64,000 bases of DNA from Escherichia coli (lineage in GTDB: Bacteria > Pseudomonadota > Gammaproteobacteria > Enterobacterales > Enterobacteriaceae). The position numbers and the translations under genes are program-made. The stretch lies in assembly GCF_041248615.1 (NCBI RefSeq), contig NZ_CP158425.1. One strand, 5' to 3'. Below the pieces are notes generated by a model. It saw only the letters and a program-made list of their open reading frames with translations. It did not search any database and was not told the DNA's origin. Numbering within the stretch: the stretch's first letter is position 1; every line of letters begins with the position of its first letter. This document shows positions 11,637-64,000 of the stretch, one piece after another.

Positions 11637-11666
11637 AGTAAATATCTTCAAGCAAAAACAATTAAA

Positions 11667-11697
11667 CCAGATGTCTCATAAGAATCTGGTTTTTTAT
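11667..11697 (+). terminator. Intrinsic terminator candidate after the TraC-like gene
   Basis: Stem CCAGAT/ATCTGG (11667-11672, 11684-11689) with 11-nt loop, followed by a T-run. Confidence 0.45.
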
Positions 11698-15640: not shown

Positions 15641-15973
15641 AAACGTAAATCAGCACACCGGTGAGATAGATTTTAGGGTCTAAGCAAGAAATAGGGTAGG
15701 CGTGAAGATTCATTAATGGAGCTCATAACGTCAAAGCGTAGAGAAGTCGACAAGAATCGTGGTTTAAAAAGAATGAGCATTAGGTATGGACTAGAGAGTC
15801 TGAGCTCTCATCTGCAAGTTAAGCTCACAAAAAATCATAAAAAAGTAAACAAACATTAGCTTAGGATTGAAACAAAGGATAGAATTGTACGTATAACAAT
15901 GAAATGGACGCATTATGCGTAAAGTTTACATATATGCGTAAAAGTCGGTTTTCAGTGCAAAAAGGTCATAACC

Positions 15974-38840: not shown

Positions 38841-39234
38841 TTCGATATGGGCATTTACTTATGCTTAAAGCTATAGTATAAAAACAATGAGCTTAAATAT
38901 CAGCTCCCAAATTTGAGTAACTTTGCTTAAAGTTACTTTCGCGTTAAGCGTTGATTTAGCCGTGAAAAGCGGCCAGCTTAAACAAGCTGTAAGACACCAC
39001 CGGCAAAATGTCACCTTTGTCGCTGGTGCACTTCCCATGCCTGAAAAAGGCAATCTGAATTTACCAAACCGTAACTAATTTAGCTCCTCCTGGAGCTATT
39101 TTTGTTGCGTACTTCTAATGCCAGATAGTATAAATCAGGCGGTTCATAGCTTACGGGAGATGAATGACAGGCTTTGCCTTCGTGTTGAAACAAAAAATTG
39201 TTTCTTCCTTCTTACTATATATAGGTGACCCCAA

Positions 39235-40107: not shown

Positions 40108-40164
40108 TCCTGTTAAGGGGGAACCCTAACGGGGCTTCTCTTTGAACAAATCGAGGAGCGGAAA

Positions 40165-40542: not shown

Positions 40543-40562
40543 CATTAAACCCACCCTAAAGG

Positions 40563-40593
40563 GGAGAAATCCCTTCATGGGATTTCTCCTTTT
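40563..40593 (+). terminator. GC-clamped hairpin plus T-run 10 nt upstream of the next start codon
   Basis: GGAGAAATCCC ttcat GGGATTTCTCC then TTTT. Confidence 0.5.
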
Positions 40594-40602
40594 GGAGTCC
40601 CC

Positions 40603-41580
40603 ATGAAACAAAAATTTAGGGCTACTGCAATAAGTAGTAATCAACTTAGTTTTTTTTCTATACTCGATATAGATGAAGATGAAATAACGCAAATAGTTGA
40701 TTCACCCAAAGAGCATTTAAATGATGCTTACACGTCCGGATTAAACTTTAAATCAGAAGAAAGTAACATTTCTGAGATAAATTATGATTCTGAAAGGCGT
40801 GAAAATCACCTTTATGAAAAATCCAAATTACTTAAAAATCAGATTTTGCATACAATTAATTTTGCAGCAGAAACAGATTATCTATATACGGTTGAAGAAT
40901 ATAACCCAGATTTGGGTGGTCTGGTAATAGAATGGACCCCTGAGGATGTGTATGTTGTTTTTCTATCCGCTATGGAAGAGTCTTTGGAAATCATTAAAGA
41001 ACTAGTGTTGAGGAGAAAGTTATTCTTCAAAGATGACAATGGTAATATCACAGTGAATCCACTTTTAGAAGCTGAAACACGGTGGTATATGTCAAAATCA
41101 TTTGAATACACTTGTTTATCTCATGGACTTGATGCATGTGAATTTAGAGCGGAATTAAAATCATGGCTCTATTATCATTCGCATCGTTCGATTAGTGAAA
41201 ACACGAAATTAGCTGAATGCAGGAATGATGATGAAATCATTTTGCATGATTGCAATGACGATATGGGCTGGGACATCTTCTTTGATCAGGATTATTTAAT
41301 GTCAGAAAAAAAACTGGCTGTTAAATGGACTGACAGGGAAATTATGGATGTTTACATAAAAGCTTTTAAATCCACATTAGAGTTGTTTGACGAGCTTGTT
41401 TCATGTGATCTGTTAACTAAACGAAACGCTTTTGGCAAGTTAGAAATCAATCCAATATTCGAAAATCATTTTGAATGGATCATGTCTGAAGCTTTTGAAA
41501 TAGTGGGAAATCATCTTGGTTATAATGTGCCTCAAATCAGGAAACTGATGGCAACTATTTGCCAAATGAATCTCAAATAA
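40603..41580 (+). CDS. Hypothetical protein
   Basis: 325-aa ORF with SD-like GGAG upstream; no recognisable motif. Confidence 0.4.
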   Translation: MKQKFRATAISSNQLSFFSILDIDEDEITQIVDSPKEHLNDAYTSGLNFKSEESNISEINYDSERRENHLYEKSKLLKNQILHTINFAAETDYLYTVEEYNPDLGGLVIEWTPEDVYVVFLSAMEESLEIIKELVLRRKLFFKDDNGNITVNPLLEAETRWYMSKSFEYTCLSHGLDACEFRAELKSWLYYHSHRSISENTKLAECRNDDEIILHDCNDDMGWDIFFDQDYLMSEKKLAVKWTDREIMDVYIKAFKSTLELFDELVSCDLLTKRNAFGKLEINPIFENHFEWIMSEAFEIVGNHLGYNVPQIRKLMATICQMNLK

Positions 41581-41637
41581 AATGCCACTGGCAAACATCT
41601 GCCAGAGGGCGGTGTTTGCATTTTACCGGAGTTAAAA

Positions 41638-42696
41638 ATGTCTAATGCCGCTATGAAGTTAAATGAAACATCTTCTGATGCTTATGAAAAATTAGAAGCT
41701 CTTCTTTCCCCGGATGTTATAAAGTTAAAACATTATGTGGATAAAGGTGAGTATCTTTTAGTTCTAGCAAAGGACCTTTTTGGTATTCCAGAAATGGATC
41801 CAAAGATGGCTGTGCCTGTTTTCAAAACTAAAACCTCGTATCGAGCTCCGCTGAACAAAGACTACATACCAAATCCCCGAATACTTGAACAAGTGGTTAA
41901 ACTGCTTATCAGTCCGGATATAGATTTAAGTGTGTGTCTTAAAGGTGAGTCCGGTTCTGGCAAGACTGAAATGGTAATGTACATTAGCCACATGATGAAT
42001 TGGCCGCTGACAATTAAGCAGATCAACAGCAATATTCGAGTTGATGAGCTTGAAGGTGAGCGCAGTCTTAATGGTGGTAATACAGGTTTTGTACACAGCG
42101 ATTTGGTAACGGGATTTCGTAATGGTCACCTCATTCTTCTGGATGAAGTGGACAAAATCGATCCTGATACGGCAGCAAAACTTCACATGCCCATTGAACG
42201 TAAGCCCTGGTCACTCAGTGCTAATGGTGGTGAGGTTATAACTGCTAATGGCTACACGCGATTTATTGGTACTGCAAACACAAACATGAGTGGAGGCGCT
42301 CGCCGGTTCGTTTCTTCTCAACGTCAAGATGCAGCTTTTATAAAGCGGTTCTTGATAGTTGAAATGGAGAAGCCCGACAAAGTTGCTTTAACCAATGTGC
42401 TTACTAAACGATATAGCTCTTTGCCTTTTCAGGTCATTGAGAAGTTCGTAAGAGTAGCGATTGCAGTAAATGACTCTGGTACAGAAGACAGTGTGATGGA
42501 TATTCGTCAATTAGTAGCTTGGGTTGGCACGTCGATGACGTTAAAAACCTTTAGTCTTCTTGACACTTTCAAAATAGCTTTTGCTTCTGCTTTACCTTTA
42601 CATGTGGTCGATCTTGTTCTTCAAGCTATAGATCTTTCTCTTGGCGAAGACAAGGATAAATCGCTGGAGTATTTCACAGCAAAAAAGTCGAGTTAG
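41638..42696 (+). CDS. AAA+ ATPase of the MoxR/CobS-like class
   Basis: 352 aa; Walker A (GESGSGKT), Walker B (ILLDEVD), downstream arginine-rich segment; size typical of MoxR/CobS. Confidence 0.7.
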   Translation: MSNAAMKLNETSSDAYEKLEALLSPDVIKLKHYVDKGEYLLVLAKDLFGIPEMDPKMAVPVFKTKTSYRAPLNKDYIPNPRILEQVVKLLISPDIDLSVCLKGESGSGKTEMVMYISHMMNWPLTIKQINSNIRVDELEGERSLNGGNTGFVHSDLVTGFRNGHLILLDEVDKIDPDTAAKLHMPIERKPWSLSANGGEVITANGYTRFIGTANTNMSGGARRFVSSQRQDAAFIKRFLIVEMEKPDKVALTNVLTKRYSSLPFQVIEKFVRVAIAVNDSGTEDSVMDIRQLVAWVGTSMTLKTFSLLDTFKIAFASALPLHVVDLVLQAIDLSLGEDKDKSLEYFTAKKSS

Positions 42697-43031
42697 ATGG
42701 GATTTGTTATGAAACCTCTGATATTTGTATCTCAGAGTTATCCCATCTTGAATTTAGTGCGTTTTTAAGTACGGATGGTGCTGCTACCATTGCTATAGCA
42801 AAAAACGGAACTAATTTTACTGGACTTATGCAACTGAATAACGACTATTCTTTATTGTTTTATCATGATGGTAAAATAAATATGGAAGGTCTGATTAAAC
42901 AAATGGAATTAAAAGGTTATATGTATCAGGGAGCAATGGGCAATGATGATGTTGTTGCTGAGTTTCCCGGTATTCTTTTAATTTCACCAGAGAAGCTTTA
43001 ATATCAACCCTATCGGGAAATCTTTCCCGTT

Positions 43032-43054
43032 GGGGAGGGTTTCCCCTTTTTTTT
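43032..43054 (+). terminator. Hairpin plus T8 element upstream of the 43065 gene
   Basis: GGGGA ggg TTTCCCC then 8 T, preceded by the perfect palindrome CGGGAAA tc TTTCCCG (43014-43029). Confidence 0.45.
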
Positions 43055-43064
43055 GGAGAAACCC

Positions 43065-44192
43065 ATGACTTTAAATACTTCAATGCTTAACAAAGTATCT
43101 GCAAAACAAATCTCTGAGAATTTTGCAAAATCATATCCAGATTTACTGGAAGGTGCAGTTATAACAAAAATTGAAATAAGTGGCTGTCAAGGATCGCGTC
43201 GAACCGATAAAATCGATTTGTCTTATGATGGAGATGATATTACGGATCAAAAAAGCGTATCTAAAAGCGAAGTACGCTGGATTGACATAAAAGCCCTTAG
43301 CTTCAAAAGTACGATTACCAGCAGAATATCAACTCTTTGCTCACGCTTGTGCATCCGCTATAGCAATATGTGGATTTTACCAGTATCCAGTATGGAAGAG
43401 TTTCTGGAAGGGGCCCAAGAGATTGAACGAGAGTTTCAGGCAGGTATTCAAAACGTTGTAGACAATTATGAGATGCATATTGAGGCTGAAAAAAATAGAA
43501 GCCCAAGAATGTCTTCTTTGATTGATCAGTTGAAATTAACTAAAGATGATTTCATAAAATCCTTTAGATTTAATATTGCTCACTTTATTCCTTTTACGCC
43601 TATTAGCGTTGAAGGTGATGAAACCCAGGACTACTATCAGGAACAATTGATAACAGATCTGGCAGAAGAAGCAATGAAGGTTTATGAAAAAATTAGCAAA
43701 AATAACAATTTGCGCTCAAGTACTATTGACCGACTGAAGCAAATGCAAAATAAGATCATTAGCTTCATGTTTATACATAAAGAGGCGGCAGTACTTGCAG
43801 AAGCTATAAAACACATAATGAATAATTTACCTAAAGGTGCCATTTCTGAACCTCGCGACGTTGCGGTGTTACAGCAGTGGTTTTATTTCATGAGTGATGC
43901 TTCAATGTTAAAGCGTATTATTTCAGGAGAGCAAAAGGTTACTGACTGGTTGGAATCTATTACCAGATCATTTAATCAAAGCTCACAAACAGAACCGAAC
44001 GCGCTACAGAACACAGGTATTGAAGCTATTTTAGATTCAACAAATGTGTTCCAGGTTGAACCTGTCGTAGAGAACGATATAAATAACAGCACGTTTTCAA
44101 ACACTGATCCTGTAGCTGAACCTGAGAAATCAGTTTCGCAACAGGAAGACAATGTTGAAAATTGTTTTGATATCGAGCTCAAAGGCTGGTAA
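43065..44192 (+). CDS. Hypothetical protein (ORF-track start 43053 is TTG; ATG at 43065 preferred)
   Basis: About 375-aa ORF between the AAA+ and vWA genes; RBS GGAGAAA. Confidence 0.4.
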   Translation: MTLNTSMLNKVSAKQISENFAKSYPDLLEGAVITKIEISGCQGSRRTDKIDLSYDGDDITDQKSVSKSEVRWIDIKALSFKSTITSRISTLCSRLCIRYSNMWILPVSSMEEFLEGAQEIEREFQAGIQNVVDNYEMHIEAEKNRSPRMSSLIDQLKLTKDDFIKSFRFNIAHFIPFTPISVEGDETQDYYQEQLITDLAEEAMKVYEKISKNNNLRSSTIDRLKQMQNKIISFMFIHKEAAVLAEAIKHIMNNLPKGAISEPRDVAVLQQWFYFMSDASMLKRIISGEQKVTDWLESITRSFNQSSQTEPNALQNTGIEAILDSTNVFQVEPVVENDINNSTFSNTDPVAEPEKSVSQQEDNVENCFDIELKGW

Positions 44193-44219
44193 CTGTTTGC
44201 TTTATTAAAAACCCCAGAT

Positions 44220-44254
44220 GGGTACTTCACCATCTGGGTGAGTACCCCTTTTTT
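44220..44254 (+). terminator. Hairpin plus T-run with an overlapping alternative stem
   Basis: GGGTACT/AGTACCC stem followed by T6; interdigitated with CCAGATGG/CCATCTGG (44214-44221, 44230-44237). Confidence 0.5.
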
Positions 44255-44269
44255 ATAAAGAGGTATTCT

Positions 44270-46288
44270 ATGAAATTAGATCTTAAATCATCACCGCGCC
44301 ATATTAAGCGTTTACAGAATATAGCAAAAGTCATTAGCGGCTTAGGCGATGTAAGAGTTGTAATAGACGACAATACCAAAGGACCGTATTTTGATCCTGT
44401 AAATAAAGTTTGTGTTTTACCAAACGGCGATTATAGCGATGATGACTTTGTCAGTCTGATTGAAGGTTTTACCTGTCATGAAGCTGGTCATGGTCGCTAT
44501 ACCGACAGCGAGGTTTACAGTGACGCCTTTAATAGTGTTCTCAAGTCATCTGAAGGGTTTACACGCTTCGATGACGGAATGAATGCAGAGTTTGAGAGCC
44601 TCGCTGAGAAACGTAAAGCTTATAGCAGGGCAAAACGTCTTACCGGGCTTATAAATCTGTTCGATGATGTACAGATGGAAGAGAAGGTTGGTAACGATTA
44701 TCCGGATGCAAAGCGGCGGCTTGCAGCCACTTACGCACTGATGGTTAAAGCCGGAAGGATGACTCCTGATATATCTTCTCGTCCGGAAAATCCTGTCCTA
44801 TTTATTGAGTGGTATCTGCTTAACTCATTGCGAGTAAAAGTCCTTCAGCAGGCAGGTCACAAAGAAACACTCGATCCGTTTTTTGACTATGCCCAAAAGA
44901 TACTTTCTCCAGTAATTTCTGATGTTGAGGAAATTTTTCATGATGCTCTTGGTTGTGAAAATACTCAGGGCTGTGAATCCCTTGCTCGTAAGACCCTGGC
45001 TCTTTTAGAGAGACTGCGGGATGAGGCAAGGGAACAACAGCAGCAGACAGAGCAGGAGGAGCAGGAGGCATATGATGAATCCGAGACCGAGACCGATACC
45101 GATACCGATACCGAATCAGAAGATAAATCGCTTGAGTCGACTGATAGTCGTGAGGATGATTCTGAGGACGATAGTGAAGGTCAGGCAGATACTTCCGATA
45201 ACTCTGATCTTGCTCAAGAGGGATGTTCTGAGCCTTCAGAACTTGCTGAAGATAACGAGGGAAATAATGAACCCACCGGTGGCAATCCCACAGGTGATAA
45301 CATTATTGAAGACGATACTGATGCGATTAACCCTTCCGAGAGTGAATCAGATGAAGCCAGTTCGACTAACGTTGAAGATGAAAGTAACTTTTCATCGGCT
45401 CAATGGGAGATACTGGCAGATTTGTTGGATGCCTTTCTTGGCAGTGATGAGGATAGCGAAGATTATCACGATGCTTTGGCTAAAGAGATTGAAGGTATTG
45501 CATCAAAAGTATCCGATGACGTGAAAGCCGAATTCGGTGCTTCTGAATGGGATATCCCTGATCTCCTTATCGATTTGAATGTTTACAATGAGGCTTTGTC
45601 TCTGAGTCATTCAATCGGTAGCGACTTGTCTGTTTTACAGCAGGTTAAAATGCGTGGCCGAAACAAAACTCATGAGCGTGGAATTACCTTCGATGGAAAT
45701 CGATTAATTCTGTCACCAATGGGAGTTCGTGATGTCTTCAGAGCTCAAAGCGAATCTAAAAATAGAGGGCATGTTGGCCTCGTATTAGTTCGTGATATTT
45801 CAGCGTCAATGGCTAATGATGAAAGATATATTCATGCCATTAAGTCAGATCTTGCTTTATCGATGGCCGCTGAAAGTTTGTCAAAAATGCATGTCTCCAA
45901 TATAGTCTTTCCCTTCAAGGAAAGTGAATTTGAGATTATCAAAACGTTTGATCAAAGCGTTGAGGAATCTCTATCGAAATTCACTCTTGGATGTAAGGGT
46001 TATTATACCCCTACGGGATCGGCTTTAATGGCAGCTGTTGATCTGTTACTTGACAGCCAATTCGATAGGAAAATAATTTTTCTTATAACTGATGGTTATC
46101 CGAATAAATCGGAATTTACTATCGGCGAAGTTATGGAAAAGGCTAAATGTAATGGAATAGAAATCGTTGGTGTTGGTATTAAGACTGATGAAATAATTGG
46201 TTTTGAAACGGACACTTTCGTAACAGTTGATGATACTTCTTTATTGTCTATTGAAGTCAGTAAGCTAGTTCATCAAATACTTTCTTAA
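44270..46288 (+). CDS. vWA-domain protein with long acidic low-complexity linker (CobT-like partner of the AAA+ ATPase)
   Basis: 672 aa; C-terminal MIDAS-like DxSxS (VRDISASM) and later TDG motif (LITDGYPN); central Asp/Glu/Ser/Thr-rich region of about 130 aa. Confidence 0.65.
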   Translation: MKLDLKSSPRHIKRLQNIAKVISGLGDVRVVIDDNTKGPYFDPVNKVCVLPNGDYSDDDFVSLIEGFTCHEAGHGRYTDSEVYSDAFNSVLKSSEGFTRFDDGMNAEFESLAEKRKAYSRAKRLTGLINLFDDVQMEEKVGNDYPDAKRRLAATYALMVKAGRMTPDISSRPENPVLFIEWYLLNSLRVKVLQQAGHKETLDPFFDYAQKILSPVISDVEEIFHDALGCENTQGCESLARKTLALLERLRDEAREQQQQTEQEEQEAYDESETETDTDTDTESEDKSLESTDSREDDSEDDSEGQADTSDNSDLAQEGCSEPSELAEDNEGNNEPTGGNPTGDNIIEDDTDAINPSESESDEASSTNVEDESNFSSAQWEILADLLDAFLGSDEDSEDYHDALAKEIEGIASKVSDDVKAEFGASEWDIPDLLIDLNVYNEALSLSHSIGSDLSVLQQVKMRGRNKTHERGITFDGNRLILSPMGVRDVFRAQSESKNRGHVGLVLVRDISASMANDERYIHAIKSDLALSMAAESLSKMHVSNIVFPFKESEFEIIKTFDQSVEESLSKFTLGCKGYYTPTGSALMAAVDLLLDSQFDRKIIFLITDGYPNKSEFTIGEVMEKAKCNGIEIVGVGIKTDEIIGFETDTFVTVDDTSLLSIEVSKLVHQILS

Positions 46289-46303
46289 TAAACTCTACCC
46301 AAT

Positions 46304-46332
46304 CGGGGCAAAAGGCCCCGGTGGGTCTTTTT
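46304..46332 (+). terminator. Hairpin plus T-run after the vWA gene
   Basis: CGGGGC aaaag GCCCCG with outer ACCCA/TGGGT arms, then CTTTTT. Confidence 0.5.
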
Positions 46333-46359
46333 GCTCCATGAAGGAATAAGGAGCAAAAT

Positions 46360-46581
46360 ATGACTCAGATAAAAACTTACCGTGTAGAACATGAAAAAGT
46401 CGGTGCGATGCATAAAGTCCGTATTTTCGGACGTGTTGGTGAAGTTATAAGCAATGATAGCCCTCAGGAAAGAATCTTCCGCGAAGTCACTATAGCGGAG
46501 GGTAATAGCCAGCAGGCTGCGTTACTTGTAGATAACTACATACAGCGTCTTGAGAATAATGGCTTCACGACTGAAGCATAA
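46360..46581 (+). CDS. Small hypothetical protein
   Basis: 73 aa with good SD (AAGGAG) 7 nt upstream; bracketed by hairpins. Confidence 0.35.
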   Translation: MTQIKTYRVEHEKVGAMHKVRIFGRVGEVISNDSPQERIFREVTIAEGNSQQAALLVDNYIQRLENNGFTTEA

Positions 46582-46586
46582 ATGTT

Positions 46587-46610
46587 GAGGGCCCCCGGGC
46601 CCTCTTTCTT
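46587..46610 (+). terminator. Hairpin plus T-rich tail after the small gene
   Basis: GAGGGCCC cc GGGCCCTC then TTTCTT. Confidence 0.5.
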
Positions 46611-46694
46611 AAATTCTGCGTTGTGGGTTTCTCCCTGTCTTCTGCACCGCAGAAGGCATTGAGAAACTCACAATGCCAGATAAGAGAGATCATC

Positions 46695-47927
46695 ATGACT
46701 TATGCATCCCCGGCTCTTCGTCGTAATCCACAGGAAGTATCTGAACACTTTATTAAACTCGTTCATGCTCGAATTGCTGAAGTGTCTGGCTGGAAGTATA
46801 TATTCGAAAGAATACCTGCTTTCAAAGACGCTTGTGCAAAAGCCCCGAGCCAGGTTCCTTGCCCGTTTACTGGCGCAGGGAAATCGAAGTTTCGTTTCCG
46901 ACAAAAAGACCTTTATACCGGATGTGCGATCCATAATGACTTTCCGGTAAATGAGTTTTGCGACGGAATTGATGTTCTGGCGAAATATTATGAATTAAGT
47001 AAAACGCAGACTTGCAAAAAGATTCTCTCAGATTTTTTCGGGATGGATCTGCATGCTCCGTTAACTGACGCCGACATTGAAAATGAACGACGCTATAAAT
47101 CAGCAGTTCGTGCCACAGAAACTCTTGACCGAGAGGAAGTGGCAAAGCGAATGCGAAAACTTGATGTGATGTATCACTATACCGGTGAAATCAAGCCTAA
47201 TACTCCTGTTGCTTTGTACCTCCGTAATCGTGGGATCTCCCGCTTACTGAGTCACTTACCAAAGGATTTAGGCTTTAATAACCGGATCTACTATTGGGAT
47301 AAAGATAAGCAGAAATCGATTATCTATCCGGGAATGATTGCGATCTATCGTGACACCCGAGGTCGGCCTCTGACTATTCATAGAACATACGTAGACAAAA
47401 ATGGTGATAAGGCACCTGTAGAAAATCCAAAGCTGATGATGAAGCCTCCTGCCGATATGACAGGTGGCTCAATTCAGTTGTTTGACCCTCACTATGATTC
47501 AGGTAGTTCGACCTGGACACTGGGAGTGGCTGAAGGGATCGAGAACGCGCTTTCTGTTGTAGAAGCGACTTCAACACCATGCTGGGCAGCCAGCTCCGCA
47601 TGGTGCCTTGAAAACGTTACTGTTCCTGATTTTTTACTGCCTCCGCCGGATGTAAAATCTATAAACTTTTATATCTGGGCGGATAAGGATATTGCTAACT
47701 CACAAGGCACTCGTGCCGGTATTGAAGCTGCTCAGCGACTTCAAAGCCGCATGGTTGAGTTTTTGGCTAAACGATATCCCGCATCAAAGCTGACAATTGA
47801 AGTCTTCGAACCAGCACAAGATATTCCTGATGGGAAAAAGGGTATCGACTGGAACGATGTTCTCCAGTTAACAGGGCAGGATGGATTCCCGATTCACTGG
47901 GCTCCTGAATGTCTTAATCAGCTGTAA
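46695..47927 (+). CDS. DNA primase-like protein (zinc-binding N-terminus plus Toprim-like C-terminal domain); ORF track extends to 46623
   Basis: CxxGxGKxKFRF-type zinc-binding motif (CPFTGAGKSKFRFRQKD...CAIH), recalled as similar to P4-alpha/TraC-type primases; acidic Toprim-like segment (YIWADKD...GTRAGIEAAQRL); RBS AGAGAG before ATG 46695. Confidence 0.55.
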   Translation: MTYASPALRRNPQEVSEHFIKLVHARIAEVSGWKYIFERIPAFKDACAKAPSQVPCPFTGAGKSKFRFRQKDLYTGCAIHNDFPVNEFCDGIDVLAKYYELSKTQTCKKILSDFFGMDLHAPLTDADIENERRYKSAVRATETLDREEVAKRMRKLDVMYHYTGEIKPNTPVALYLRNRGISRLLSHLPKDLGFNNRIYYWDKDKQKSIIYPGMIAIYRDTRGRPLTIHRTYVDKNGDKAPVENPKLMMKPPADMTGGSIQLFDPHYDSGSSTWTLGVAEGIENALSVVEATSTPCWAASSAWCLENVTVPDFLLPPPDVKSINFYIWADKDIANSQGTRAGIEAAQRLQSRMVEFLAKRYPASKLTIEVFEPAQDIPDGKKGIDWNDVLQLTGQDGFPIHWAPECLNQL

Positions 47928-47931
47928 CAAC

Positions 47932-47965
47932 GATAACTCCCCCGCTTTTTGCGGGGGGGGTTATC
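47932..47965 (+). terminator. Long GC hairpin after the primase-like gene
   Basis: GATAACTCCCCCGC ttttt GCGGGGGGGGTTATC. Confidence 0.4.
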
Positions 47966-48005
47966 TTATCAATATTATATTTTAAAATTGTATTGATAAG
48001 ATAAC
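47960..48005. promoter_or_regulatory. Perfect 14-bp inverted repeat with 18-bp AT-rich spacer (operator-like)
   Basis: GTTATCTTATCAAT (47960-47973) and ATTGATAAGATAAC (47992-48005) are exact reverse complements. Confidence 0.4.
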
Positions 48006-48197
48006 CGCTTTCCTTCGTGATAATTACCTGCCTTTAAGGTCTTTTCACGGCTGAGATGCTTGCTCAGTTAAATAAATGTGCGGTACTACTGGCTATGGTC
48101 GGTTGTATGACATGGTTATTCCATAAACTATTAAAACCCATAACGGGAGTATTACCGTTATGGTGATGCTCGTCGTTTTACATCGGAGAGCATTTTA

Positions 48198-48719
48198 ATG
48201 AATTTTCAAATTAACGAAGTTTTTAATAAATTTGCTGCTGTTATAAAATCGCGCATCGTCAATGAACCATCGTCATGCTATTTGCTGCATGATAATGAGA
48301 TAGATATAACGATTTTGAAACATAGCATATTAGAAAATGACAGAAACCTGTTGTACGTAGTTCGTCCTTCAGGAACGTGTTTGTTGCGTTGTGACAAATA
48401 TTTCTATCCGAAATATTATCTTCGTTGCCGTGGAGATTATAAGTCATTCATATATGTCCATCTTGATCTACATAGTGGTGAAGCTAAAGAAATCACATGG
48501 GAGCAAGCAGACGATATGCTGTCTAGTCCAGGAAAACCCCCATTAAAAGGGAATCTTGGACGATTTGAGTATATAAAAGTTGTGGTTGAGGACCTTCGTA
48601 TTCGAGGTTACGCTGATTATCTTCCTGCGTATAATCTTGATGACCTTCGCCGTTTTGCCTTACAGGACGACCGCCCATCCCTTGTCAGATACATTGGCAA
48701 TGTCATGGCAACGGTCTGA
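48198..48719 (+). CDS. Hypothetical protein
   Basis: 173-aa ORF upstream of the paralogue array. Confidence 0.35.
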   Translation: MNFQINEVFNKFAAVIKSRIVNEPSSCYLLHDNEIDITILKHSILENDRNLLYVVRPSGTCLLRCDKYFYPKYYLRCRGDYKSFIYVHLDLHSGEAKEITWEQADDMLSSPGKPPLKGNLGRFEYIKVVVEDLRIRGYADYLPAYNLDDLRRFALQDDRPSLVRYIGNVMATV

Positions 48720-48797
48720 TTGATTGCTAATTGATTTACATATTTTCCCTGATGGCCAACCTGCATCAGGGAGGCCTCAATAACGAATGGAGGCTGT

Positions 48798-49676
48798 ATG
48801 AAGTTAGCTACGGACCTGGTAAAAGCTATTTTGATTAGAAATGGCGTTGAACCAGTAAATATAAGCGAATCATCTAAGTTATCTTTGAAACAACCACTGA
48901 CAGAACTTAAATTCAGTTTATATTTGCGAACTGAGCATTTATCTCACTTCCTACCCGGTTATGTTTATTCTATAAAAGAATGTCCACTGTCATATGACAT
49001 CGGGATCGAAATTCAGAAAATCTTCGAAAGTTTACATTTGTTAAACGAAGAATTTGAATCCCTCGGTTTTGTTTCTGTATGGATAGAAATGCATCAAAGC
49101 ATTTTTGAACAAAGTCGGTTTAAGAAAAGTAACTTTACTTTTCGGGAGGAAGAGGTCGAGCTTGCTAAAGGGCTTGTTTGTTCTCACAATTCACAAATAA
49201 GTAATGCGGCTTATTTCTGGCTTCAGCACTTTGAGGAGTTTATGATTTATGTTCGTAATAAGCTTATCGACCTCTTTCGAGAGGCCTATGACCTGATCCT
49301 TGGAATGCAGCAAGTATTTTTCATTCGGGAAAAGGAAGAGCTGTTGAAAACTATAAGTTATGGCGATGAGCTGTATGAGGTGAAATTCATGGCGGCTGAG
49401 CTTTACTCTATCGAACAGAACTTAAAGTGTTCTGAATCGATAAGTACAAAATCTCAAGCTTCGGCATATATTAACCGCATCCGTGAGTTTGTGCGTTCGG
49501 GGTGGAGGCAGGGCTATATAGTCTGCCATCATAAGCGAAGTAATCAAATTTCATCATTGTCATTACCGATGTACTTGAAAGATACGTCAGGCCGAAGTGC
49601 TCGAAAGCGAGTAAAACGTCTTATATCTTCTACAGTTTGTGGTAGAAATAAAGATTTAGGTCTTACAGATTTTTAA
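48798..49676 (+). CDS. Hypothetical ~300-aa protein, member 1 of the tandem paralogue family
   Basis: 292 aa; N-terminus (LVKAILIRNGVEPVNISES) shares a pattern with the four following genes. Confidence 0.45.
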   Translation: MKLATDLVKAILIRNGVEPVNISESSKLSLKQPLTELKFSLYLRTEHLSHFLPGYVYSIKECPLSYDIGIEIQKIFESLHLLNEEFESLGFVSVWIEMHQSIFEQSRFKKSNFTFREEEVELAKGLVCSHNSQISNAAYFWLQHFEEFMIYVRNKLIDLFREAYDLILGMQQVFFIREKEELLKTISYGDELYEVKFMAAELYSIEQNLKCSESISTKSQASAYINRIREFVRSGWRQGYIVCHHKRSNQISSLSLPMYLKDTSGRSARKRVKRLISSTVCGRNKDLGLTDF

Positions 49677-49694
49677 TTAAATTATACCCATGTG

Positions 49695-49730
49695 GGGATC
49701 ACACCCCATATGGGAGTGATCCCTTTTTTT
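49695..49730 (+). terminator. Hairpin plus T7 between paralogues 1 and 2
   Basis: GGGATCAC/GTGATCCC stem then 7 T; overlapping near-palindrome CCCATGTGGGG / CCCCATATGGG. Confidence 0.55.
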
Positions 49731-49746
49731 ATTGAGAGAGGATCAC

Positions 49747-50682
49747 ATGAAAATTATCGAAAAAATCATTAATGCCTTTTTGGTTGTTCAACATAAAAAA
49801 ATACAGGTTAAAAACATTACATTTTTAGACAATGGGCAGGGCATGTTCTCTGGTATGTCTTTTGATGCTGATGTTTCACTGGAGTTTATGTATGAATCAG
49901 CAAAAGCATATAGTTCTTGTTTCTTTGATATTCCCTTTCCAGGTTTTGAAGATGCAAATCTGGAGGAAATTACGAAATTTCAATTAGATGCTTTGAAGCA
50001 AAGAAAGAATCATTCTTTCTTTGTTAACCATTTGAGGTTTCCTATAGTTTTAAGGGAAGGGTGCAAAATCGAAAGAGGAGAAGTCTATTCAATTTCGAAT
50101 TGCACTTATAATAAAGAAAGATTGCAGTATCTTTTTTCTCAGGATATTTACGGTAAGTTGTATAATTCCTTAGAGAAAGAATTAAGCTCGTTTTTCTCAT
50201 TTATCAATGTTGAGGTGCACGAGTTGTTAAAAGATGCTGTATGCTTTGCATTAAAAATCCTGAATAAGATATCTTTGGATACACCTGAAAGACTTATTAA
50301 AGCTTTTAATTATCGTGACTGGTATTGTAGTTACGATGTTGAGCTTTTTAGGAAAGGCTTACCTGGTCATATTCTGGAAGAGCTCATTGCTCCAGATATC
50401 TTACTTTCAGACCTTAACGGTTGTAGAAAAATACTTAGAAATGCAAAACGATTTCTAAATGGACATACACAAACCAATTGTGTTTATATTAAATATGAAT
50501 GGTGGTTGGGGCCTGTTGATACCTCACACTCAGCTAAGTTGATGTCTGACAAAGAAATTAATAACCGAAGTGACTTGAAGAATTTTTCAAAGGTCTTTTT
50601 CAAAGAGTGTTTAAGTTCTGGTAAGTCGGAATATGAAAACCATCTTAGTGAAAAAGAACATGCGCTTCGCTATAATTATTAA
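49747..50682 (+). CDS. Hypothetical ~300-aa protein, paralogue family member 2 (ORF-track start 49732 is TTG; ATG 49747 preferred)
   Basis: N-terminus KIIEKIINAFLVV...ITFLDNG follows the family pattern. Confidence 0.45.
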   Translation: MKIIEKIINAFLVVQHKKIQVKNITFLDNGQGMFSGMSFDADVSLEFMYESAKAYSSCFFDIPFPGFEDANLEEITKFQLDALKQRKNHSFFVNHLRFPIVLREGCKIERGEVYSISNCTYNKERLQYLFSQDIYGKLYNSLEKELSSFFSFINVEVHELLKDAVCFALKILNKISLDTPERLIKAFNYRDWYCSYDVELFRKGLPGHILEELIAPDILLSDLNGCRKILRNAKRFLNGHTQTNCVYIKYEWWLGPVDTSHSAKLMSDKEINNRSDLKNFSKVFFKECLSSGKSEYENHLSEKEHALRYNY

Positions 50683-50750
50683 TTAAAATTATTTTCTCCC
50701 ATAGGGATTTCTCCCTATGGGAGAAATCCCTCTATTAAGAGGGTATTGAA

Positions 50751-51671
50751 ATGAATGCTATACAAAAGTTAGTTGAATCTATTCTTGTTAAAATGGGTTT
50801 TGTTGGCGCTGTAGTGGAAAATATATATTTGGATTCAAAACCATTTCGGCATATTCGATTTGTGGCTGATATTCCAGTAATATCTTTTCTACCTCATTTG
50901 GTGAAATATCTTAAGGGTGCAGACCATCTTTACAGTGGTAACGATGATTTGCATCCTCTTTTCATTTATTTTTCCGAAGCGGCTACATTAAAAGCAGGTC
51001 CTGTAAATCTCGCGAACTTTCGTTTTGAAGTTTCTATAGCTTCAACTCATTTACGACTGGTCTCAGAGCAGCCTGATTTGCTTTTCAAAGGATTTAACCG
51101 GGATAATCTAGAATACGTTTATTACCGCTCAGATTTGGCCTCTAAGGATCTTATACTAGGCCTTGTTGAACACGGTTCTCCTTTCATAAAACATCTACAT
51201 GGACTTATACAAAAGCGAATTTTAAACGAGTTCTCTCTGATTTTTTCTGTTCTTGAAAAGATTTTAGAAAGCGCGAAGCCACAAATTCTTGCTTGCTTCC
51301 ATAGTGTTGATTATGAAATGAACGTAAAAATAATAGCCGAAGCTATACCTGAAACTGTATCTAATCAGATAGTCACATCTGATTATATAGTTAATTCTAT
51401 ATCAGATGCGGACAAGTTTATAAATCATGTTCGTCGCTATTTAGCAGGCAGGGTAATGAAGAGGCGGATATACGCTGAATTAGATGTTTGTGAAGAAACA
51501 TCAAGTATTTCACTAGTGAACTTAGGATGCTTTACGTCTCCTCTGCTCGTTACGGAATATCAAATGTTTAAGCCACACTCTTCAGGGTTATATCGAAAAG
51601 CTATAAACAACTCCTTAAAACAGTTCAAACCAGAAATGCATGTACCTTCTGAAGAACTCTTTTATAATTAA
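50751..51671 (+). CDS. Hypothetical ~300-aa protein, paralogue family member 3
   Basis: 306 aa; N-terminus IQKLVESILVKMGFVGAVVENIYLD. Confidence 0.45.
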   Translation: MNAIQKLVESILVKMGFVGAVVENIYLDSKPFRHIRFVADIPVISFLPHLVKYLKGADHLYSGNDDLHPLFIYFSEAATLKAGPVNLANFRFEVSIASTHLRLVSEQPDLLFKGFNRDNLEYVYYRSDLASKDLILGLVEHGSPFIKHLHGLIQKRILNEFSLIFSVLEKILESAKPQILACFHSVDYEMNVKIIAEAIPETVSNQIVTSDYIVNSISDADKFINHVRRYLAGRVMKRRIYAELDVCEETSSISLVNLGCFTSPLLVTEYQMFKPHSSGLYRKAINNSLKQFKPEMHVPSEELFYN

Positions 51672-51737
51672 TCTAACCCATCCGGGAACCTGCTTCCCGG
51701 TGGGAAGCACTTCCTTTTTAGTCATGAGGTAGTGTAA

Positions 51738-52676
51738 ATGTTTAAAGAATCTGACCACGTGGAATTTGTTAGTGCCTTTCTTTATCAAAATTTAGGCCTT
51801 AATGTTTCCGCTGACGATATAACCGTTCAATTATCTGATACTTCGTTCGACAAAGTAACCTTTGATTACGATGTAGATATCGATAATTTAAATTGTATGT
51901 TGGATCTCTACATATCTGAGCTAATAAAGCACAACGCATCTTACTCCGATTCTATTCTTTTGAAACAAAAAATAATTTATTTTCTTGGAGTATTTAAGAA
52001 TTTCGGATTTTTTACGTTTGATATTCGCGGATATAGTAATACTTTAAGCCCAGTTAAAGTTATTGATATTGTTTCAATGATTATTAATGACTGTGAAGAG
52101 TTATCTAAAGCTAATTCTTCTACTGATGCTATAAGAAATCTTTATCTCGATAAAATGAAGGTGGATGGGAAAGTGTTAGTTGCGAAATTTGCACTTAAAC
52201 AGTTTTTTCATTCCGACTTTGGTGACTTTATCTCATTTGTCGAGAAAAGAATTACAGATTGTCTTAATGAAACTTTAAGGATTATCAAAGCTGTTGAACA
52301 TGGCTTTGTACGTGTAGGGCAGCATAAGATTAATCGCCGTATTAATGATGACTTAAAGTTATGCATTGATTTCAATACTGATGATTATCCGGCAAATATG
52401 CCAGATATATATATTAAGTTTAACGATACATTTGATGGGAACGGGGCGTTATATTGTGACAATGATGCCCTCATATCCCTCTATACCGATGTTGCTTCAA
52501 TTATCAATGTGCCGGTGATGATGGAAGTAAGATTGATCAATAAAAGAGGGCGTGTTGTCTGTGATTCTTCGCATTCAACTTACGTATCTCTCGAAAGTAA
52601 TGACCGATACAGAGTAACTGATCGCACATTACTAATAACTGAAGCTTTTGACGATTTTCGTAACGCGTCTCAATGA
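51738..52676 (+). CDS. Hypothetical ~300-aa protein, paralogue family member 4
   Basis: Clearly paralogous to member 5 (VDGKVLVAKFALKQFFHSDFGDFISFVEKRIT versus VDGQVMIARFALQQFWDTHFIGLITFVSESIT); same upstream context GAGGTAGTGTA(A/T)ATG. Confidence 0.5.
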   Translation: MFKESDHVEFVSAFLYQNLGLNVSADDITVQLSDTSFDKVTFDYDVDIDNLNCMLDLYISELIKHNASYSDSILLKQKIIYFLGVFKNFGFFTFDIRGYSNTLSPVKVIDIVSMIINDCEELSKANSSTDAIRNLYLDKMKVDGKVLVAKFALKQFFHSDFGDFISFVEKRITDCLNETLRIIKAVEHGFVRVGQHKINRRINDDLKLCIDFNTDDYPANMPDIYIKFNDTFDGNGALYCDNDALISLYTDVASIINVPVMMEVRLINKRGRVVCDSSHSTYVSLESNDRYRVTDRTLLITEAFDDFRNASQ

Positions 52677-52847
52677 TCCTTTTGCTTCAGTCCAAAAAAG
52701 TAACTTTGGTTGGCTGAAGACACTTGTCTATGACAATGTAAAATCTGTCGCTGGCATCTTCTTTTAGCTTAACCAAATTTTTATCTAACCCAGTGGGGAA
52801 GTCGCTTCCCTTCTGGGGCACTTCCTCTCAAATTCGAGGTAGTGTAT

Positions 52848-53804
52848 ATGACACATTCATCTGATGATAAAAACTATGTCCGAGCAGTTCTGAGTTATCT
52901 TGGCATAGATTTTGATGAGGCGGATATAGTATTAAGTGTTTGCCATTGTCAAAGTGACGAGCTTTCTTTTACCTGTAATATCAAAGCTATTGAACTCAAG
53001 AATGCTGTTGATTTATATGTCGATAGTATCTCTGAGAATGAAATAGAAGCTTTAAACAGAGAATCTTTAAAATCGCGACTCTGTTACTTTCTTGAGGTGT
53101 TTGACGCAGTCTCTGGTCAGTACCTTGAAATTTCAGGAAAACACTTTGCAACTAGTCGTTTTGAATATGATGATGTTTGTAGTGAAGTTCTTAGCATGTC
53201 TAATGATGTTTCTCAGTCGAAAGGTTATGACCGGGATGAATATAACAGACTGATGCAGGTTGATGGTCAGGTTATGATTGCCCGTTTTGCTTTGCAACAG
53301 TTCTGGGATACTCATTTTATTGGACTAATAACATTTGTATCTGAGTCTATAACATCGAGCCTCTATAAAGCTTATGAAACTTTTAGTGATATTAGTTTGG
53401 CTTGCTATAAACTGAGTGAATATTCTTATTCACGCTCTATCAACAGTGAATTGACCCTTAATATTTCACTTAAAGAAAATGACTTCTGTGAGGACCTATC
53501 TGATTGCTATATGGAAGATGAGGCTTTACCTTCTGGTAGGGTAATTTCTCGACGCAACAATGACTCCATAATAAGTATTTATGAGAGCTATGCTGCGGCT
53601 TCTTATATTCCGATGATTGCATCTTTGGAAGTCGTTGATGAATACGGCGAAGTGGTTACTGACCTCTGCCATACCGTTTATGTTTCAGAGTTAACCGGTG
53701 GGCGGATTAAAATCCACGACCGTAATGACTTAGTATCTGAAGTTTTCGATAACCTAAGAAATTTAAATCTTGCAGTTGGAGATTCAGTTTCACAAGCTGC
53801 TTGA
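52848..53804 (+). CDS. Hypothetical ~300-aa protein, paralogue family member 5 (ORF-track start 52842 is GTG)
   Basis: Paralogue of 51738-52676 along the whole length. Confidence 0.5.
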   Translation: MTHSSDDKNYVRAVLSYLGIDFDEADIVLSVCHCQSDELSFTCNIKAIELKNAVDLYVDSISENEIEALNRESLKSRLCYFLEVFDAVSGQYLEISGKHFATSRFEYDDVCSEVLSMSNDVSQSKGYDRDEYNRLMQVDGQVMIARFALQQFWDTHFIGLITFVSESITSSLYKAYETFSDISLACYKLSEYSYSRSINSELTLNISLKENDFCEDLSDCYMEDEALPSGRVISRRNNDSIISIYESYAAASYIPMIASLEVVDEYGEVVTDLCHTVYVSELTGGRIKIHDRNDLVSEVFDNLRNLNLAVGDSVSQAA

Positions 53805-53843
53805 TTCTTTCCCTGATTTTGATTTTTTCTCACATACTCTTAT

Positions 53844-53867
53844 GGCACGGTTTCCGTGCCTTTTTTT
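53844..53867 (+). terminator. Intrinsic terminator closing the paralogue operon
   Basis: GGCACGG ttt CCGTGCC then 7 T. Confidence 0.65.
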
Positions 53868-62741: not shown

Positions 62742-63845
62742 CTGAATTTACAATCCAAGTGCAACAAAAAAAGAAGTACTCATCAACTAGAATATAATTT
62801 TGTTTCCACACAAAAACCATTTCCAAATGATGAGTACTTCCTACCGACATCTTACAATAAACGAGCGAGAAAAGATAATGATTTTACTCGCACAGGGCAA
62901 AAAACAAGCAGAAATTGCCAAAGCACTGGGACGTAGCTCCAGCACCATTTCTCGCGAGCTGAAACGACACGCTCTAGAAAGCTACAGTGCAACGAACGCA
63001 CAAAACAGCTATTTGAAGCATCGTCAAAATAGCAAAGCACAGCGCAAATTAGAGCAGCCTGAATATTTCAATTTGGTGCAAGAAAAGTTTCTGACAGAAA
63101 ACTGGTCGCCCGAACAAATCAGCGCACGATTAAAATTGGAAAAATCTGAATTATCCATTAGTTATTCAACCATTTATCGTGGTATTTATTCAGGGTTGTT
63201 TGATATAGGCGAACGCAAAGCCAGTCGCAAACTGCGCCACAAAGGCAAAACACGGCATACAAAAAATCATCATGAAAAACGTGGCAAAATTCAGATATCC
63301 AACCATTTGAACGACCGTCCCATTTCGGCGCAAAATCGCAGTCGCTTTGGACATTGGGAAGCCGATACCGTACTGGGTAAAGCGGGTGGAGCTTGTTTGC
63401 TGACGCTGACGGAACGCAAAAGTCGTTTTGAGTTGGTGAAGAAAATTCCTGCCAAAAAAGCCGAAGCAGTCCAAAAAGCCATGATTGAATTGCTGGATTC
63501 ACATATATTGCGGTCAATTACGCCAGACCGTGGTAAAGAATTTGCCCAACATCGTTTGGTAACAGAAGCACTGGGTGTAGAATTTTACTTCCCCGAGCCG
63601 CATCAACCGTGGACACGGGGAACGAATGAAAATACAAATGGGTTACTTCGTGAATACTTTCCGAAGCACCAAGACATCAATCAGTGGAGCGAAGTTGATA
63701 TTCAACAGGTGATCAATAAACTGAATTTACGACCACGTAAATGTTTAGGTTGGAAAACACCTTATGAAGTTTACTTCAAAAAATCGTTGCACTTGGTTTG
63801 ACAATTCAAGATACAAATTATAAATACTCTCAAGTGTATATTCAG
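62742..63845. mobile_element. IS30-family insertion sequence (about 1.1 kb); boundaries approximate
   Basis: Contains the IS30-family transposase gene; imperfect terminal inverted repeats beginning CTGAAT at about 62742 and, inverted, ending at about 63845. Confidence 0.5.
62827..63801 (+). CDS. IS30-family DDE transposase
   Basis: N-terminal HTH (TINEREKIMILLAQGKKQAEIAKALGRSSSTISRELKRH); DDE-region signatures (GHWEADTV, WTRGTNENTNGLLREYFPK). Confidence 0.85.
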   Translation: MMSTSYRHLTINEREKIMILLAQGKKQAEIAKALGRSSSTISRELKRHALESYSATNAQNSYLKHRQNSKAQRKLEQPEYFNLVQEKFLTENWSPEQISARLKLEKSELSISYSTIYRGIYSGLFDIGERKASRKLRHKGKTRHTKNHHEKRGKIQISNHLNDRPISAQNRSRFGHWEADTVLGKAGGACLLTLTERKSRFELVKKIPAKKAEAVQKAMIELLDSHILRSITPDRGKEFAQHRLVTEALGVEFYFPEPHQPWTRGTNENTNGLLREYFPKHQDINQWSEVDIQQVINKLNLRPRKCLGWKTPYEVYFKKSLHLV

Positions 63846-64000
63846 TATGGGATTGCGCAATGATTGCCTAATAAAATTTCTGAAATATTTCTGTATCGCA
63901 TAATTTTTTATATCAGATAAATTGTACTGGATTTCTTAAAAAATTGCAGTATAATTGCCGCAATTATCCCACCGTTTATTTTTTGAGTAGTTTCTCATGA

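Follow-up and report, generated by a model that had tools for sequence, protein, structure and literature searches.

Hairpin modules predicted to mask ribosome-binding sites before successive genes of an IncHI2 plasmid operon: probable translational switches, mostly not terminators

Why should nearly every gap between the genes of a plasmid operon carry a GC-clamped hairpin just ahead of the next start codon? The question is raised by a 64-kb stretch of an Escherichia coli plasmid (the window) of type IncHI2A, whose relaxase is of the MOBH class and whose mating system is MPF_F; whole-plasmid comparisons were made on the record p14408_M1 (NZ_LT599829.1), 238 kb long, whose first 64 kb are the window, with identical coordinates. 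Directly downstream of trhN and trhI lies the block under study, a run of plus-strand genes that opens with genes of 290, 125 and 325 amino acids (aa), a CobS/CbbQ-like AAA ATPase gene and a small open reading frame (ORF), and continues with the genes for a DUF3150 protein and a CobT-like VWA protein, a 73-aa gene, a toprim primase gene, a 173-aa gene and five genes of ~300 aa, here called p1-p5. A preliminary description of the sequence listed twelve inverted repeats in this block and took them for gene-by-gene punctuation, several of them resembling attenuator/antiterminator or pseudoknot arrangements. All twelve are present, in place or a few nt away, and one further junction (40109-40159) joins the series; what had been overlooked is that the sequence 3' of each hairpin pairs with the Shine-Dalgarno (SD) region of the following gene. 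Here we describe this repeated arrangement and argue that it probably represents an operon-wide set of translational switches that mask ribosome-binding sites, and for the most part not terminators.

Between 40.1 and 52.9 kb, strong sense-strand structure is found at 10 to 12 successive junctions, and folding of whole junctions gives two adjacent hairpins at each of them (hp1 and hp2). The first, hp1, is a GC-clamped hairpin of the form 5'-CCC(A)NNNGGG..loop..CCCNNN(T)GGG. Its layout over 53 aligned modules consists of a G-free A-rich flank, CCC, A/T, three variable bases and GGG(R)(R), then a loop of 3-9 nt, CCC, three variable bases, T/G and GGG. Directly 3' of it stands hp2, in which an anti-SD strand, often ending in CCC plus a T-run, pairs with the SD and spacer of the next gene. 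Predicted free energies (dG) range from -13 to -25 kcal/mol for hp1 and from -8 to -14 kcal/mol for hp2. Across the modules only the CCC/GGG clamps and the SD are held in common, while the middles of the stems differ.

This structure goes well beyond chance. Measured against dinucleotide shuffles, the junction RNAs of the block fold with z = -2.1 to -7.8 (weaker before the AAA gene, z = -1.8), whereas five control junctions outside the block give z = -0.6 to +1.0, which bears out the punctuation as non-random; in 10 of 14 folded block junction RNAs, none of 200 shuffles was as good as the native sequence. Compact CCC...GGG hairpins (<=32 nt, dG <= -14) number seven in the block; the plasmid's remaining 224 kb have three, each of which falls within the GC-rich resistance region. 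A 12-mer arm that had been seen to recur in two of the elements, GGGAGAAATCCC, occurs four times at no more than one mismatch (at 40562 and 50719, and on the minus strand at 40579 and 50704) against 0.25 expected. The cost of opening positions -15 to +3, a measure that took the place of a crude SD-pairing statistic, has a median of 9.1 kcal/mol for 14 block genes and of 3.0 for 40 other genes of the window (p = 0.002).

The same set of junctions emerges when annotation is ignored. A scanner was written to find the SD-bearing start of any ORF of at least 50 codons that is preceded by an hp2 of <= -6 kcal covering at least half of the SD, with an hp1 of <= -10 kcal within 8 nt upstream of hp2. 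On both strands of the window it returned 10 matches, all of them annotated plus-strand starts of the block (40165, 43065, 44270, 46360, 48198, 48798, 49747, 50751, 51738 and 52848), and hp2 covers at least half of the SD in 10/10. The remaining 174 kb of the plasmid yielded no canonical module, only non-canonical matches that lie mostly inside GC-rich resistance or transposon genes, and Rfam gave 0 matches at the gathering threshold in the 64-kb window. Sharing structure, confined to one operon and placed at orthologous positions, the copies do not behave as repetitive extragenic palindromic (REP) or bacterial interspersed mosaic element (BIME)-like repeats, nor as miniature inverted-repeat transposable elements (MITEs).

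The block is syntenic in IncHI1 pHCM1, in an IncHI1A-type Pantoea plasmid, in IncHI3-type plasmids and in an IncHI5-type plasmid, with two hairpins at the same junctions. Between IncHI2 and IncHI3/5 the proteins are ~38% identical and the junction sequences unrelated, and the hairpins are still present. The same module in the same operon occurs in a Shewanella plasmid, whose DUF3150 protein is 20% identical, and further copies were found in a Pseudomonas MOBH/IncP (IncP-7) plasmid, in an SXT/R391-type integrative and conjugative element (ICE) with ssb/bet/exo/RadC, and in an IncC plasmid. Synteny of the block extends over IncHI2, IncHI1, IncHI3, IncHI5, Shewanella, IncP-7, IncC and SXT-type loci, and modules stand where its genes start; few were found in a Photobacterium plasmid and no convincing one in an Aeromonas plasmid, and a wider contig search for relatives gave only two more close relatives. 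The block is one long plus-strand operon (~14 kb), the IncHI counterpart of the hde defence-evasion/recombination operon of IncC and SXT elements; in its IncHI2 form it is without bet or exo. Gene-by-gene punctuation of this sort had been called unusual for a plasmid backbone, which is true of the rest of this plasmid, where it is absent, but not of the operon, of which it is a hallmark in MOBH-type conjugative elements.

Covariation supports the paired strands. The alignment was sequence-based and comprised eleven concatenated junctions from IncHI2, IncHI1 and IncHI1A, scored on the structure derived from IncHI2; the IncHI3 and IncHI5 junctions, which MAFFT misaligned, were left out of it, and modules were detected independently in each distant lineage. 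Over 217 pairs, 89.7% were paired, and 13 pairs had changed on both sides, against 5.1 +/- 1.8 in shuffles (0/500 as high) and 0 to 1 when the partners were slid.

The modules contain, in addition, a strand that competes for the anti-SD sequence. We designate as X the top four bases of the 5' arm of hp1 together with its loop, as Y the linker and 5' arm of hp2 (the anti-SD strand), and as Z the SD with its spacer. X and Y of one junction form a duplex of -8.6 kcal on average, as against -4.3 kcal when they are taken from different junctions, a specificity significant by permutation at p < 2e-4 in IncHI2, IncHI1, IncHI1A and Shewanella and at ~0.002 in IncHI3 and IncHI5; the interdigitated, mutually exclusive palindromes reported earlier for several elements are thus real and also general. 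The match takes in loop nucleotides that have no role in hp1. At the p2 junction a three-way change has occurred, from ATCAC/GTGAT/ATCAC in X/Y/Z of IncHI2 to ATTAC/GTAAT/ATTAC in IncHI1, and in the alignment of IncHI2, IncHI1 and IncHI1A the X:Y cells are 94.8% paired versus 46-59% when slid. With Y beginning 0 to 4 nt past hp1, the X:Y pairing and the hp1 stem exclude each other. On so short a linker a pseudoknot between the hp1 loop and Y was rejected as sterically implausible, judging from geometry; of the two arrangements proposed at the outset, attenuator-type exclusive stems stand and the pseudoknot does not.

Folding calculations indicate what this competition could achieve. Freeing the SD arm costs a mean of 9.6 kcal with hp1 intact as against 3.4 kcal when the lower 5' strand of hp1 is blocked (0-3.7 kcal in 9/10 IncHI2 modules), because the long X:Y hairpin then forms instead. 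Unless the hp1 base is blocked, this alternative fold is never the minimum-energy state. In the mechanism that we propose, the ground state would have hp1 closed and Y paired to Z in hp2, with the ribosome-binding site masked, and translation of the cistron would be strongly damped despite heavy transcription of the operon. Unzipping of the 5' base strand of hp1 would allow X, an SD-like segment in the upper 5' arm and loop of hp1 that would act as an SD mimic, to capture Y and expose the SD.

The part of this explanation that is best supported is that the module is a translational attenuator masking the ribosome-binding site; that it may be a two-state switch, in which X would take Y from the SD once the hp1 base opens, is well supported by sequence statistics. 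We infer that all copies would attenuate as the bet element of SXT does, and that they would switch. Several observations weigh against this explanation. The crude pairing probability of the SD window differs only weakly from that of other genes (p = 0.046), and in IncHI the junction before the AAA gene lacks SD masking, its predicted SD being unpaired at 0.78. Covariation of X:Y in the three alignable lineages is modest, with 3 double changes and 17/500 shuffles as high. The gap between the upstream stop and hp1 has a median of 9 nt but spans -5 to 82 nt, long intergenic regions too may precede a module, and masking the footprint of a terminating ribosome opens the SD in only a minority of junctions.

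A simpler account would make the modules constitutive dampers, hp2 cutting translation by a fixed factor, hp1 serving to insulate or stack, and X:Y having no part in switching. It is consistent with the stability of hp1, which is such that the alternative fold needs a blocked base, with a predicted SD accessibility that is flat from 15 to 50 C, and with the fact that our search for a trigger gave none. We nevertheless regard it as a possibility of the second rank, since X:Y is junction-specific in every lineage tested down to loop nucleotides that are idle in hp1, since it has been kept through joint changes of the kind ATCAC -> ATTAC across X, Y and Z, and since blocking the hp1 base lowers the cost of SD opening by ~6 kcal.

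Alternatively, hp1 might be a stabiliser or processing signal, REP-like or resembling the RNase III sites of phage T7, that shields each cistron 5' of it from 3' exonucleases or marks sites of endonuclease cutting, and so gives the parts of a polycistronic RNA different stabilities. Its position just past stop codons (median gap 9 nt) and its high stability would suit such a role, as would the G-free A-rich single-stranded stretch 5' of it, of the kind favoured by RNase E, and the hairpin at 47932-47965, which has no associated start codon. As an account of the whole module this is unlikely: hp2, the pairing of the SD and the X:Y match are left unexplained, modules also occur where there is no upstream cistron, and hp1 stems of 9-15 bp are too short for RNase III. 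Stabilisation or processing could be a secondary role of hp1.

The reading suggested first, in which intrinsic terminators or transcription attenuators punctuate the operon and the competing stems are terminator and antiterminator, is one that we find improbable, although it has real features on its side. Terminator-like pattern matches are enriched between 38 and 57 kb (27 versus 13.3 +/- 3.6 expected), 4/10 IncHI2 modules have 5 or more T after the X:Y hairpin, and hp1 before the 73-aa gene runs directly into CTTTTT. The T-run, however, said at first to follow the hairpins as a rule, stands directly after a stem in only ~4 to 5 junctions and is not conserved. At orthologous junctions, T-runs after Y fall to 0 to 2 per locus (IncHI1, IncHI3, SXT, IncP-7, IncC), with none in Shewanella or Pseudomonas, and IncHI1 interrupts several of the T-runs of IncHI2, yet preserves or even lengthens the pairing of the SD. 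At least 4 T within 8 nt past hp1 are found in just 1/10 IncHI2 modules. In most modules the anti-SD strand separates the T-run from hp1, and the only stem that does end at the T-run, X:Y, has a loop of 13-14 nt and is unfavourable as long as hp1 stays closed. The stretch from hairpin to start codon offers neither room nor signal for a promoter, and homologous operons are polycistronic (PMC7498323). Most module T-runs, not being adjacent to a stable stem, differ from those of intrinsic terminators: the T-run is largely the pyrimidine strand or loop of hp2, partner of the purine-rich SD. In the few IncHI2 junctions that loosely resemble a terminator, with an X:Y hairpin and a U-run, there may be some termination too.

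One element does fit the classical description fully. At 53844-53867 (plus strand), 40 nt past the last gene, a 7-bp GC stem with a 3-nt loop (GGCACGG-TTT-CCGTGCC) is followed by T7 (z = -3.7), and its IncHI1 equivalent, again a hairpin and T-run after the last gene, lies at 17122-17149 of locus L002. It is the only place at which a stem runs directly into a U-tract that is conserved, and it is the true terminator of the operon and the only conserved classical one. At the gene junctions of these elements, a GC hairpin with a T-run is not to be annotated as a terminator. The preliminary statement that hairpins stand 10-30 nt upstream of the next start fails for this terminator, with no gene for the next 200 nt, and for 47932-47965, which has no start near.

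That the inverted repeats act as DNA, whether as hairpins in the transferred single strand, as priming signals for primase or as protein-binding palindromes, seems very improbable to us even though CCC..GGG palindromes are identical on both strands, a primase gene lies inside the block and relatives of the operon act as soon as DNA has entered (PMC7498323). Folding is better for the sense strand than for the antisense strand (p = 6.6e-5 for the whole module, p = 4e-4 for hp2), 84/1073 module pairs are G-U, and it is the SD that defines hp2 and keeps a constant spacing to the start codon, all of which points to hairpins of mRNA rather than DNA; the stem middles, moreover, vary freely with compensation, unlike a protein-binding site, and oriT, mobI and the relaxase region lie ~115 kb away. 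Equally hard to credit are RNA thermometers tied to the temperature sensitivity of IncHI conjugation, given that the predicted SD accessibility is unchanged between 15 and 50 C in 10/10 modules and that SXT, IncC and Pseudomonas elements, whose transfer is not known to be thermosensitive, carry these modules as well, even if the U-rich strands paired with the SD are fourU-like and an hp2 of -8 to -14 kcal falls within the range of known thermometers.

If the modules are indeed switches that mask the ribosome-binding site, something has to open hp1, and here the mechanism is at its most speculative. Where hp1 abuts a stop codon, ribosomes finishing the preceding ORF, or a short upstream ORF, might unzip it and so relay opening from cistron to cistron. 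The stop-to-hp1 gap is <=5 nt in 11/35 modules and >12 nt in 13/35, and in 18/61 modules the first base of hp1 is exactly where a stop triplet ends, versus ~6 at other offsets. The variable gaps and the modules that follow long intergenic regions mean, therefore, that a termination relay is not the general trigger; with 12 or 15 nt past the stop forced unpaired, the SD opened in a minority of cases, and the relay was kept as a partial mechanism. Junctions with long gaps would need some factor other than a terminating ribosome. The stop triplet at hp1 is often out of frame with the annotated upstream gene. In modules of all loci (for example 51672-51679 and, in locus L018, 10032-10040), the six bases 5' of hp1 are almost free of G (~1%).

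Other candidates were considered and put aside. TrhI as an RNA helicase was dropped, its Pfam assignment being to the UvrD/Rep-type DNA helicases. Promoters in the A/T-rich flank, with transcripts starting inside hp1 in the manner of phage T4, would imply sigma-70-like sites, which are not enriched and of which there are none at the junctions; in Proteus and Pseudomonas loci the flank is A/C-rich and not -10-like. A leader-peptide ORF reading through hp1 is found before the 173-aa gene and is not general. A link of hp1 to AcaCD/SetCD boxes (GCCC-N5-GGGC) was set aside as a coincidence of CCC/GGG content.

The individual junctions, all on the plus strand, show how the common plan is varied. The first module, before the 125-aa gene (ATG 40165), occupies 40109-40159, with hp1 at 40109-40133 and hp2 at 40134-40159 pairing GCTTCTC with the SD-containing GAGGAGC (z = -3.7); the upstream stop codon lies 1 nt 5' of hp1, and the module is kept in IncHI1 and IncHI1A. 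Before the 325-aa gene (ATG 40603) stands a variant, 40553-40598, in the form of an extended hairpin, GGAGAAATCCC/GGGATTTCTCC (z = -2.9), which contains one copy of the shared 12-mer and whose 3' strand, CTCC plus a T-run, faces the SD GGAG. In IncHI1, IncHI3 and IncHI5 the fold at this junction pairs the SD, or the SD plus the AUG. The junction before the AAA ATPase gene (41584-41627) is weak or atypical, with the alternative stems CTGGCA/TGCCAG and GCAAACA/TGTTTGC, and in IncHI3 and IncHI5 it is a 33-nt gap with no hairpin. Within it, GGCGGTGTTTGC at 41605-41616 is invariant in IncHI1 and IncHI1A and bears a loose likeness to the RfaH-recruiting ops element, GGCGGTAGnnTG.

Canonical modules precede three genes further downstream. 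Before the DUF3150 gene (ATG 43065), 43008-43064 comprises hp1 at 43008-43035 and hp2 at 43037-43064, GGGTTTCCCC-T8-GGAGAAACCC (z = -4.0), with the alternative fold GGGAAATCTTTCCC...GGGAGGGTTTCCC, and the module is present at the orthologous junctions of all IncHI lineages. The VWA gene (ATG 44270) follows 44213-44268, with hp1 at 44213-44238 and hp2 at 44240-44268 (z = -5.1); its X, GGGTACT, and Y, AGTACCC, pair at -12.4. Both hairpins are retained at this junction in IncHI3/IncHI5 with an entirely different sequence, hp2 reading GAGTACCCCTTT/AAAGAGGTATTC in one lineage and GCGCCCAT/ATGGGTGC in the other when IncHI2 and IncHI3/5 are compared. The module of the 73-aa gene (ATG 46360) runs from 46297 to 46358, with hp1 at 46297-46326 and hp2 at 46329-46358, TTTTGCTCC/GGAGCAAAA (z = -4.8).

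Around the toprim primase gene the layout departs further from the consensus. The variant module before it, 46582-46696 (z = -7.8), has a short clamp hairpin, GAGGGCCC/GGGCCCTC (46587-46604), and a strand, TCTTTCTTA, that pairs with the SD, TAAGAGAGA, across a conserved 64-nt hairpin (~46617-46680); like the variant before the 325-aa gene, it still pairs the SD. The intervening hairpin is nearly perfect (CTGCGTTGTGGGTTTCTC...GAGAAACTCACAATGCCAG), its sequence is kept in IncHI1, IncHI2, IncHI3 and IncHI5, far more conserved than the other junctions, and it could be a separate RNA or DNA element, for instance a primase-related one. Annotations of the primase start disagree, the IncHI1 start being an ATG at the 3' end of this hairpin and the IncHI2 start 46695. 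Just past the toprim stop codon, at 47932-47965, the GC-clamped hairpin GATAACTCCCCCGC/GCGGGGGGGGTTATC is not a module; it is without a T-run, is conserved in IncHI1 and IncHI1A, and may be a 3' stabiliser or weak terminator. Further downstream of it, IncHI1 has a terminator-like ACCTG..CAGGT-T8. An AT-rich 18-bp inverted repeat, GGTTATCTTATCAATA...TATTGATAAGATAACC (47958-48006), overlaps the 3' arm of the GC hairpin in IncHI2 and is not found in IncHI1 or IncHI1A.

The 173-aa gene (ATG 48198) follows a 270-nt intergenic region that ends in a module at 48138-48194, with hp1 at 48138-48163 and hp2 at 48165-48194 (z = -4.1). A short upstream ORF (48075-48140) starting from the conserved ATGACATGG reads through this hp1 in IncHI2 and stops 2 nt before it in IncHI1; it may be a leader ORF that toggles the module.

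Genes p1-p5 (48798-53804), of 292-318 aa, are at best very distant paralogues, p2-p5 being only 14-19% identical to p1 in sequence; they are found in IncHI1, IncHI1A and IncHI2 and absent from IncHI3 and IncHI5, and the one p1-p5 protein searched had no family match. Each has a module of its own. That of p1 (ATG 48798) spans 48746-48795, with hp1 at 48746-48772 and hp2 at 48773-48795 (GGCCTC/GAGGCT, no T-run; z = -2.1). Before p2 (ATG 49747), the module at 49687-49746 (hp1 49687-49714, hp2 49716-49746; z = -6.5) has X GGGGATCAC, Y GTGATCCC and Z GGATCAC, with X:Y at -15.9. The p3 module (ATG 50751), 50693-50743, has hp1 at 50693-50726 and hp2 at 50728-50743 (CCCTCT/AGAGGG; z = -6.5), and its alternative 12-bp stem, GGGATTTCTCCC/GGGAGAAATCCC, lies at 50704-50730. 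In the p4 module (ATG 51738), 51677-51735, with hp1 at 51677-51704 and hp2 at 51707-51735 (z = -4.0), masking 15 nt from the upstream stop lifts the predicted SD accessibility from 0.21 to 0.78. The p5 module (ATG 52848), 52789-52845, has hp1 at 52789-52817 and hp2 at 52818-52845 (z = -5.1). The hp2 arms of p4 and p5 are identical, GCACTTCC / GAGGTAGTGT, while the proteins are only 27% identical, as might be expected if the RNA element is under strong selection or subject to gene conversion.

At the head of the operon, trhI, a helicase gene, stands directly upstream of the block in every lineage. The gap between it and the first block gene (38841-39234) is 394 nt long and highly structured, with a minimum free energy of -121.6 kcal/mol, and includes a terminator-like hairpin at 39081-39098; the promoter of the operon and any 5' leader presumably lie within it. 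Elsewhere in the window, the 4.3 kb between a traC-family gene and parA (11637-15973) hold no gene in the PLSDB plasmid table, which is incomplete; a pseudogene or some feature missing from the table may lie there. The last part of the window (62827-64000, continuing to 66865 in the record) carries ISApl1 and the start of mcr-1.1, followed by a second copy of ISApl1, a layout resembling a composite transposon.

How do the modules relate to known systems? The source study of the closest of these, the SXT bet attenuator, is reportedly that of Garriss, Poulin-Laprade and Burrus in 2013, as summarised in a review. Upstream of bet in SXT, and also in IncA/C, that review places a strong translational attenuator, with high transcription and strongly hindered translation (PMC4542580). 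The bet element of SXT/R391 belongs to the same conserved operon downstream of traN (ssb/bet/exo, CobS-like ATPase, DUF3150, VWA), and the SXT-type and IncC bet genes are preceded by exactly the hp1 plus hp2 module of IncHI2: at L015 (5707) and L018 (8983), the hp1 consensus is followed by anti-SD and SD. It differs in that the summary describes a single element before one gene, whereas IncHI2 has 10-12 successive genes so equipped, with a defined consensus and an SD-mimic competitor. In IncC, the hde operon comprises vcrx089-093 and acts in the recipient against restriction and CRISPR attack, and a predicted structure masks vcrx089's ribosome-binding site (Roy et al. 2020, PMC7498323). That gene is orthologous to the AAA/CbbQ-like ATPase gene and the idea of sequestration is the same, but the structure figures there as a stand-alone element, brought in to account for a polar effect (PMC7498323), and the orthologous AAA junction of IncHI is without clear SD masking. 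The IncC AAA-gene module (L018 6410) fits our consensus, and it and the two bet modules are these reported elements.

More distant parallels share parts of the logic. The ermC and cat leaders exemplify ribosome-dependent translational attenuation, and the MS2 coat-replicase and rpmI-rplT pairs structure-mediated translational coupling. In these systems a hairpin likewise ties up the SD, which is released when an upstream segment enters a competing, mutually exclusive pairing; the fold would change over once a ribosome occupied the first segment, comparable to the drop of ~6 kcal seen here on blocking the hp1 base. The IncHI2 competitor of the SD, in contrast, is itself enclosed in a second, closed hairpin when it pairs with the anti-SD strand, the upstream stop of many modules is too distant for a ribosome to reach them, and no drug-stalling leader peptide is evident. 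In repZ (repA) of the conjugative IncI-alpha/IncB plasmids, the strand masking the downstream SD likewise finds its complement in a hairpin loop. Control of repZ works through a pseudoknot that coexists with the upstream stem and is regulated by an antisense RNA, unlike the IncHI2 module with its 0-4-nt linker, for which we know of no antisense RNA.

A full-text literature search, whose coverage did not take in the 2013 SXT study, found no report of such structures in IncHI plasmids, nor of an operon-wide repeated module. The IncHI2 elements appear to belong to the kind reported for SXT and IncC, and the operon-wide three-strand architecture and its spread among MOBH elements appear to be undescribed. 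Published work had noted that the operon is highly transcribed yet poorly translated and left open how the block is relieved; what is added here is a repeated and conserved three-strand module before almost every cistron, the extension to IncHI and a built-in competitor strand. The hp1 5' base strand (a), together with X, Y and Z, offers a concrete, mutable target for finding the trigger.

Resistance genes, mcr-1 among them, have major carriers in the IncHI2 plasmids, and the homologous IncC/SXT operon enables DNA that enters a recipient to withstand restriction and CRISPR attack there (PMC7498323). More tentatively, one trigger might flip the dozen three-strand switches together, in an operon-wide RNA regulon conserved across IncHI, IncA/C, SXT/R391, IncP-7 and marine plasmids; candidates would be a ribosome relay that sets out from the first gene, or a factor confined to the time immediately following entry into a new host. 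Were this so, the defence-evasion proteins would be made in a burst in the recipient and held off in established hosts despite strong transcription.

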